A model generated the notes under the pieces. It had not been told where the DNA came from and did not search any database. It saw only the letters and a list, made by a program, of their open reading frames with translations. The translations under genes were made by a program, and so were the position numbers. From Escherichia coli (GTDB lineage: Bacteria; Pseudomonadota; Gammaproteobacteria; Enterobacterales; Enterobacteriaceae): a DNA stretch of 355 nucleotides. Shown in pieces: positions 1 to 355 of the stretch. Position 1 is the first letter of the stretch. Every line of letters starts with the position of its first letter. Location: the NCBI RefSeq assembly GCF_003334355.1, contig NZ_QOWP01000112.1. The stretch is one strand, 5' to 3'.

Positions 1-355
1 TGAATTTGACCTTGCGGCTTAACTGTCGCTGAAGTCTCGCCAGCGTCTTCTGGTTTTTCTGAAAACTGTTTACAGGCTCAAAGACTGTGCCATCTGACAG
101 CGTGGCGAGTTTAGCCACGCCAGCATCCAGCCCGATCATTGATGCTGAAGGGTGAACCGGAGTTGATACTTCACTTTCTGTCTGAATACTGATGTACCAC
201 TTACCGCAGGACTGGCTGACAGTGACATTTTTCACAACACCCGTGACCTGACGGCTGTTCCGGTAGCGCATCCAGCCCAGTTTCGGCAGAAAAATACGGC
301 TGTTTTCCTGATCGAGCTTAACGCCCTGCGGGTAGCGGAATGCATCATTCTGTCC
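1..355 (-). CDS. tnpB: IS200/IS605-family TnpB (OrfB) RNA-guided endonuclease, internal fragment; both ends lie outside the window (N-terminal side beyond 355, C-terminal side beyond 1)
   Basis: Seen in sequence: the minus-strand frame phased to position 355 (first full codon 353-355, last 2-4) is open for 118 codons. All three plus-strand frames hit stops within the first 32 nt (tga 1-3, taa 20-22, tga 30-32) and the other two minus-strand frames also contain stops. Established knowledge, from memory: the translation carries TnpB hallmarks, namely FRYPQG (complement of 323-340), a basic/aromatic KLGWMRY segment (complement of 263-283), the beta-strand-like CGKWYISIQTE, the RuvC-I motif IGLDAGVAKLATLSDG, and the following LARLQRQLSRKVK segment. 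No alignment was run. Confidence 0.85.
116..136 (-). other. tnpB: RuvC-I catalytic motif coding segment (IGLDAGV); putative catalytic Asp codon gat = complement of 125-127
   Basis: Seen in sequence: the reverse complement of 116-136 reads atc ggg ctg gat gct ggc gtg = I G L D A G V. Established knowledge: TnpB and Cas12 RuvC-I motifs have this hydrophobic-G-hydrophobic-D-x-G form, with the Asp as first catalytic residue. Assigning this particular Asp as catalytic is inference by motif position. Confidence 0.7.

Follow-up and report, generated by a model that had tools for sequence, protein, structure and literature searches.

The 355-nt stretch of E. coli DNA analysed here (the window) lies, with a probability that we put at roughly 0.85, within the tnpB gene (insQ) of the insertion sequence IS609, and encodes part of a 402-aa TnpB RNA-guided endonuclease that is IS-borne and has the whole D-E-D triad and a CCCC zinc finger. 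To judge from its sequence, the window is an ordinary fragment of a known gene in a known insertion sequence, already annotated. Its significance is small and lies in a correct annotation, as RefSeq already calls insQ/tnpB an RNA-guided endonuclease.

The fragment and the protein to which it belongs

Minus-strand frame 1 is open over the entire window, while the remaining two minus frames and all of the plus frames are interrupted. The encoded peptide is GQNDAFRYPQGVKLDQENSRIFLPKLGWMRYRNSRQVTGVVKNVTVSQSCGKWYISIQTESEVSTPVHPSASMIGLDAGVAKLATLSDGTVFEPVNSFQKNQKTLARLQRQLSRKVKF (118 aa). In a megablast comparison with complete E. coli genomes the window is 100% identical over 355 nt to genes that RefSeq annotates as 'insQ: RNA-guided endonuclease InsQ/TnpB family protein'. 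This exact sequence is found at two or more chromosomal sites, with the gene orders tehAB-ydcL-(tnpA pseudogene)-insQ-ydcO (locus L001) and glv-(tnpA pseudogene)-tnpB-yidH (L002). At both of these the gene is 1209 nt long and specifies 402 aa, and placing the peptide on the two proteins shows that the window holds codons 107-224 (residues 107-224; positions 2..355, minus strand) followed at position 1 (minus strand) by the opening nucleotide of codon 225. To convert window position x to L001 coordinates, one takes 3356-x. The gene is insQ (ydcM) of IS609, a member of the IS605 group. The K-12 locus has the same gene order as L001, the same element ends and the same TTAT target, although the window is not the K-12 allele, the W3110 copy being different at 2 nt; nothing else of substance separates them. 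Of 5426 complete E. coli genomes, 4885 (~90%) contain matches to insQ/tnpB, at a median of two places per genome, chiefly chromosomal. A literature search for functional studies of insQ/ydcM returned incidental mentions only.

Two domains are represented in the window. Positions 140..355 (minus strand) encode the C-terminal part of the WED domain region (residues ~107-178, matching ISDra2 TnpB residues 113 to ~184, with an approximate boundary), and positions 2..139 (minus strand) encode the N-terminal part of the RuvC domain (residues ~179-224, from the match to Pfam OrfB_IS605), comprising the first strands that bear D183 and the beginning of the next helix. The RuvC-I motif I-G-L-D-A-G-V (residues 180-186) occupies positions 116..136 on the minus strand, where the codons read from 136 to 116 are ATC GGG CTG GAT GCT GGC GTG, and it aligns with 'GVDVGI' of ISDra2. 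The first-pass annotation had placed a RuvC-I catalytic Asp in this interval, and the column mapping bears it out: the GAT codon at 125..127 (minus strand) specifies Asp183, the counterpart of ISDra2 D191 and predicted first RuvC catalytic carboxylate. On its own the 118-aa fragment matches OrfB_IS605 with E=2.7e-11 (fragment residues 56-117) and NCBIfam guided_TnpB with E=4.8e-23; the latter score of 82 bits is below the cut-off of 100 because only a partial sequence is being compared. As a sequence match, the RuvC-I motif in the window is far beyond chance. Features on the plus strand were considered and set aside as chance-level; these are a 22-aa ORF, a match to Rfam sR10 of 13.8 bits (E=0.37), and short two-copy repeats.

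The gene runs from right to left, and the RuvC-II Glu, the RuvC-III Asp and the zinc finger had been predicted to lie beyond position 1; the full ORF confirms this. Its completion and alignment with ISDra2 TnpB of Deinococcus radiodurans (PDB 8bf8, 8exa, 8h1j), which had been proposed as the way forward, recovers all of the residues sought. The two proteins (402 and 408 aa) are collinear over their full length, with residues 3-372 of the E. coli protein aligned to residues 3-370 of ISDra2 TnpB (phmmer against the PDB sequences, 8bf8/8exa; E=5.6e-55) at 38% identity over 353 aligned positions. The RuvC triad is complete, with D183, E267 and D363 in the columns of ISDra2 D191, E278 and D361, and of these D183 alone falls within the window. 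Both CxxC pairs of the zinc finger are also present, with C334, C337, C353 and C356 in the columns of ISDra2 C331, C334, C351 and C354. In the cryo-EM structure of the ISDra2 protein, D191/E278/D361 form the catalytic centre, the zinc finger is of the CCCC type and the RuvC domain begins at residue 185 (PMC10097598). The E. coli protein differs from ISDra2 TnpB, apart from the modest identity, in having 15 extra residues inserted behind the RuvC-II Glu (~279-293), and its element differs in having tnpA divergently oriented.

Profile comparisons of the full-length protein from window-identical loci give the same picture. It scores 380.7 bits on NCBIfam NF040570 (guided_TnpB; cut-off 100), and its Pfam architecture consists of HTH_OrfB_IS605 (E=3e-13), OrfB_IS605 (2.3e-34, residues 162-277) and the TNB zinc ribbon (2e-23). 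On the 'exception' model NF038281 (IS200_TnpB) it reaches 306.4 bits where 425 are required; that model is the narrower of the two, and the protein is accordingly placed in the wider guided_TnpB subfamily. Identity as a type V CRISPR effector was rejected, the scores being 91 against a required 450 bits for Cas12f2 and 143 against 350 for C2c8, and host genes abut the 1.75-kb IS. Judged by its sequence, the full-length protein is a TnpB nuclease with no part missing and is predicted to be active.

The IS609 element and its putative ωRNA

Comparison of loci delimits an element of 1748-1749 bp (~1.75 kb). Its left end starts with CCGGTGCGCC and is directly preceded by TTAT at 8/8 independent sites; its right end terminates with GGAGGATGTCAA, beyond which the sequences diverge. 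Each terminus has its own subterminal hairpin, CCCCRTCC-TTCA-GGGCGGGG at the left and CCACGTCC-TTCA-GGGCGTGG at the right. When empty sites are reconstructed by fusing the left flank, up to and including TTAT, with the right flank from the base that follows TCAA, sequences 100% identical over 300 nt are found in other E. coli genomes; at 80% query coverage or more, the intact yajI site is present in 5083 genomes and the empty ydcL-ydcO intergenic site in 2044, the latter site thus being polymorphic. Insertion of IS609 is precise, 3' of TTAT and without target duplication, which is a hallmark of the IS200/IS605 'peel-and-paste' elements. IS609 displays the full set of features of that family, namely a Y1 HUH TnpA, hairpins at both ends, a fixed target tetranucleotide, and no target-site duplication. 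The TTAT of IS609 differs from the TAM of ISDra2, which is TTGAT.

At ydcL the insertion TTAT closes the T-tract of a hairpin that resembles a terminator and follows the gene (L001:2160-2186; GCGCCATCGTTAGATGGCGC followed by TTTTTAT), so that the IS lies directly behind a terminator. In two copies the right-end hairpin is a variant, CCTCGTCA-TTCA-GGGCGTGG, in which the stem is weakened (L007:2090-2152 and L008:2090-2152); L007 nonetheless belongs to the pair of copies whose tnpA is intact.

The tnpA and tnpB genes are divergent and their start codons are 7 bp apart (L001:2675-2683), so that the promoter of each gene must be situated within the coding sequence of the other. A consensus promoter scan of the element gave 2 sites, with 1.7 expected, which is no excess over chance. 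An intact tnpA, scoring 145.7 bits on transpos_IS200, is found in O157:H7 F6321 and in EC-7215; in the other 23 of the 25 copies sampled it is a pseudogene or is deleted. Two copies of 1501 bp (L009:659-2159) and 1337 bp (L010:816-2152) have internal deletions that remove most or all of tnpA without damage to either end or to tnpB; one lies in an ST131 chromosome, at the yhgE-hslO site, and the other is on a 65-kb plasmid. These internally deleted copies could be mobilisable in trans.

A conserved RNA structure overlaps the final ~140 nt of tnpB and the right end, where the fold of a single sequence has z=-3.2 relative to shuffles. In Rfam the region (L001:3818-3944) has sub-threshold matches only, to HgcC (22 of the 50 bits needed), RAGATH-18 (25 of 45) and sot0042 (15 of 88), older families whose members seem to be ωRNA-like transcripts from TnpB genes. 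Because Rfam contained no above-threshold ωRNA match, we built a comparative alignment of our own from 54 distinct right-end regions. The consensus has 23 base pairs in four helices, with double compensatory changes at 16 of the 23 pairs; three of the helices are within the tnpB coding region and the fourth is the right-end hairpin. Pairing is seen in 95.5% of cells; in controls whose partners are shifted by 1-3 columns the figure is 41-55%. There are 139 double-change cells, as against 10-45 in these controls; the observed pairing and covariation values were reached by none of 500 shuffles. The right-end hairpin would also be read by TnpA as ssDNA, which makes its covariation ambiguous between roles in RNA and in DNA.

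We infer from characterised TnpBs (ISDra2, Geobacillus) that the conserved 3' RNA is an ωRNA. As in ISDra2, it would derive from the 3' end of the gene together with the right end. The putative ωRNA would be ~150 nt long and would end in ...GGAGGAUGUCAA, followed by the guide. By analogy with ISDra2 and the Geobacillus TnpBs, the guide would be the ~16-20 nt of host DNA directly 3' of TCAA, and by analogy with ISDra2 the guide at the ydcO site would be UAUCGGUUUCUGUCAG.

The terminal 12-mer GGAGGATGTCAA is present with two mismatches or fewer at 82 of 93 loci, with unrelated sequence following it. It is almost invariant in Enterobacterales, Burkholderiales and other Proteobacteria at 58-66% TnpB identity (L014-L093); the hairpin preceding it covaries freely, and some lineages have an insertion of ~30 nt.

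Intactness and selection among copies

Matches to the gene amount to ~9,500 places in E. coli, in hit tables that carry no pseudogene flags, and our estimate of intactness rests on 25 fetched copies from at least eight insertion sites and two plasmids. An uninterrupted 402-aa ORF with all seven key residues is present in 23 of these. Nine contain the exact 355-nt window, of which eight are intact and one is broken. The broken copy (L104:683-1891; strain KL53, glv-yidH site) has a TCA to TAA nonsense change at codon 76 (gene nt 226-228), which would fall ~90 nt past the right-hand end (position 355) of the window. The other lesion, in L012, is an 11-bp deletion at gene nt 64-74. Decay is thus a minority outcome among IS609 tnpB copies, both overall (2/25) and among the window-identical ones (1/9).

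These copies bear on three points that the first-pass annotation had raised. It had held that activity could not be told from death or decay within the window, and this proves right, as the same 355 nt occur in eight intact copies and in one with a nonsense mutation; the useful lesson is one of method, in that retention of the RuvC-I motif in a fragment does not show whether the copy from which it came is functional. Of the lesions that the annotation had named as marks of a pseudogene or a nuclease-dead protein, a stop and a frameshifting deletion account for the two broken copies, and the intact copies have no catalytic substitution. It had also directed attention to the sequence left of position 1, which is indeed where the remaining catalytic residues are encoded. 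However, both lesions are N-terminal of the window, that is, to the right of position 355, and the right flank therefore needs checking as well as the left.

Conservation extends beyond E. coli. Of the 25 E. coli copies 24 have D183, as do 80 of the 81 sequences in an alignment of E. coli with 80 relatives; in the two that lack it, the ORF is frameshifted in one and truncated in the other. Among the 80 relatives, which are from other species of Gamma- and Betaproteobacteria at 58-94% identity, no substitution is seen at the triad or at the four Cys, and these residues are absent only where the ORF is truncated (4/80) or the contig ends. We also noted a TnpB with 81% identity to the enterobacterial protein on a 2057-bp contig labelled Streptomyces mutabilis JCM 4400 (NZ_BMTT01000064.1); so short a stand-alone contig is more suggestive of contamination than of a gene native to an actinobacterium.

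The fates of the two genes of IS609 have diverged at the ydcL-ydcO site, where tnpA is dead through stops and frameshifts in 12/12 sampled copies and tnpB is intact. Among nine tnpB copies from this site (L001, L003, L013, L094-L099) the segregating changes number 21 synonymous and 25 non-synonymous, for a pN/pS of 0.34 (binomial p=3.8e-4 against neutrality) from a small sample of 46 changes in all. There are no indels in 1206 nt of tnpB, as against six indel columns in the adjoining 496 nt of left end and tnpA (L001:2683-3891 and L001:2187-2682 respectively). Across 12 intact copies the median pairwise Nei-Gojobori dN/dS is 0.23 (64 pairs with dS>0.02). These values are suggestive of purifying selection on tnpB, with dN/dS of ~0.2-0.3, such that it outlives tnpA; we word this no more strongly because other copies, through gene conversion, could account for part of the pattern. 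The persistence of tnpB beyond tnpA in this species is in keeping with the general view of 'solo' TnpB genes.

Possible roles and alternative explanations

From what is established for characterised TnpBs, the E. coli protein would bind the ωRNA, and the complex would recognise TTAT together with a match to the guide, which is the configuration of the empty donor site after TnpA-mediated excision. The RuvC active site would then cleave the empty donor site, and recombinational repair from the sister copy would restore the element. Most copies in E. coli have a dead tnpA, and in these the element would be immobile with tnpB maintained. With tnpA dead there is no excision, and the canonical homing role is therefore without an obvious trigger in most copies. 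The upkeep of tnpB under these circumstances could reflect residual selfish selection, with autonomous copies converting or mobilising the others, or else a transposase-independent role.

Alternatively, tnpB might be intact and catalytically competent by sequence and yet no longer serve homing, being either silent or kept for some different function, for instance to prevent the empty-site allele from replacing the element or to act on other TTAT-flanked targets. In favour of this is the combination at ydcL-ydcO of dead tnpA in every sampled copy with intact tnpB and low pN/pS, and the site is polymorphic, with an empty allele in ~2044 genomes. Moreover, IS609 gave zero new insertions in mutation-accumulation lines (PMC5009759) and never transposes in K-12 (PMC5009759, PMC2891674). 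However, gene conversion from mobile copies can mimic purifying selection, autonomous copies do exist, and the 46 segregating changes at this site are a small sample; we regard departure from homing as unlikely. Slightly less likely still is the specific form of it in which TnpB-ωRNA acts as a transposase-independent retention or drive device against incoming empty-site DNA, or has been co-opted at the level of the host with its nuclease kept. Were such a device to operate, empty-site DNA, with its TTAT and guide-matching flank, would be cleaved during recombination between strains.

A different concern is that the particular copy from which the window derives is a decaying pseudogene, with RuvC-I intact and a nonsense or frameshift mutation outside the window. 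Such copies do exist: L104 has the exact window together with its TAA at codon 76, L012 has lost 11 bp near the start of the gene, the partner tnpA is a pseudogene in most copies, and a few of the relatives are truncated. As only one of the nine window-identical copies is broken, and two overall, and as the dN/dS values and the lack of indels indicate a gene that is generally maintained, we consider decay of this copy improbable. The remaining alternative, that the protein is a nuclease-dead RNA-guided transcriptional regulator of the TldR type, arises because only one of three catalytic residues is visible in the window, and TldRs have the ancestral fold and RuvC-I region in common with TnpB and also occur in Enterobacteriaceae. 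TldRs have a deteriorated DED motif, have often lost the C-terminal ZnF/RuvC segment, and have acquired new non-transposon partners, their genes adjoining fliC_P or oppF and not being situated inside an IS (bioRxiv 10.1101/2023.11.30.569447). By contrast, every intact IS609 copy has the three carboxylates and four Cys in a protein of 402 aa, and the gene is inside an IS bounded by left and right ends, with tnpA, at no fewer than eight unrelated sites. As the insQ family shows neither loss of two or more DED residues, nor C-terminal ZnF/RuvC truncation, nor a partner of the fliC_P/oppF type, we reject a TldR identity for it, and the chance that this protein is such a regulator is very slight indeed. 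We therefore favour the identification of the window as part of the gene for a complete, IS-borne TnpB nuclease.

A TnpB orthologue named 'IS609' has been purified and assayed with a TTAT TAM (PMC12781874). It belongs to the same family as the E. coli protein, with the same start (MKRLQAFKFQLRP...) and the same motifs, but it is derived from a metagenome, is unlike the E. coli protein at many positions, and is reported for trans-cleavage screening, in which another orthologue was the most active. The TTAT TAM used there matches the TTAT that we derived independently from insertion sites.
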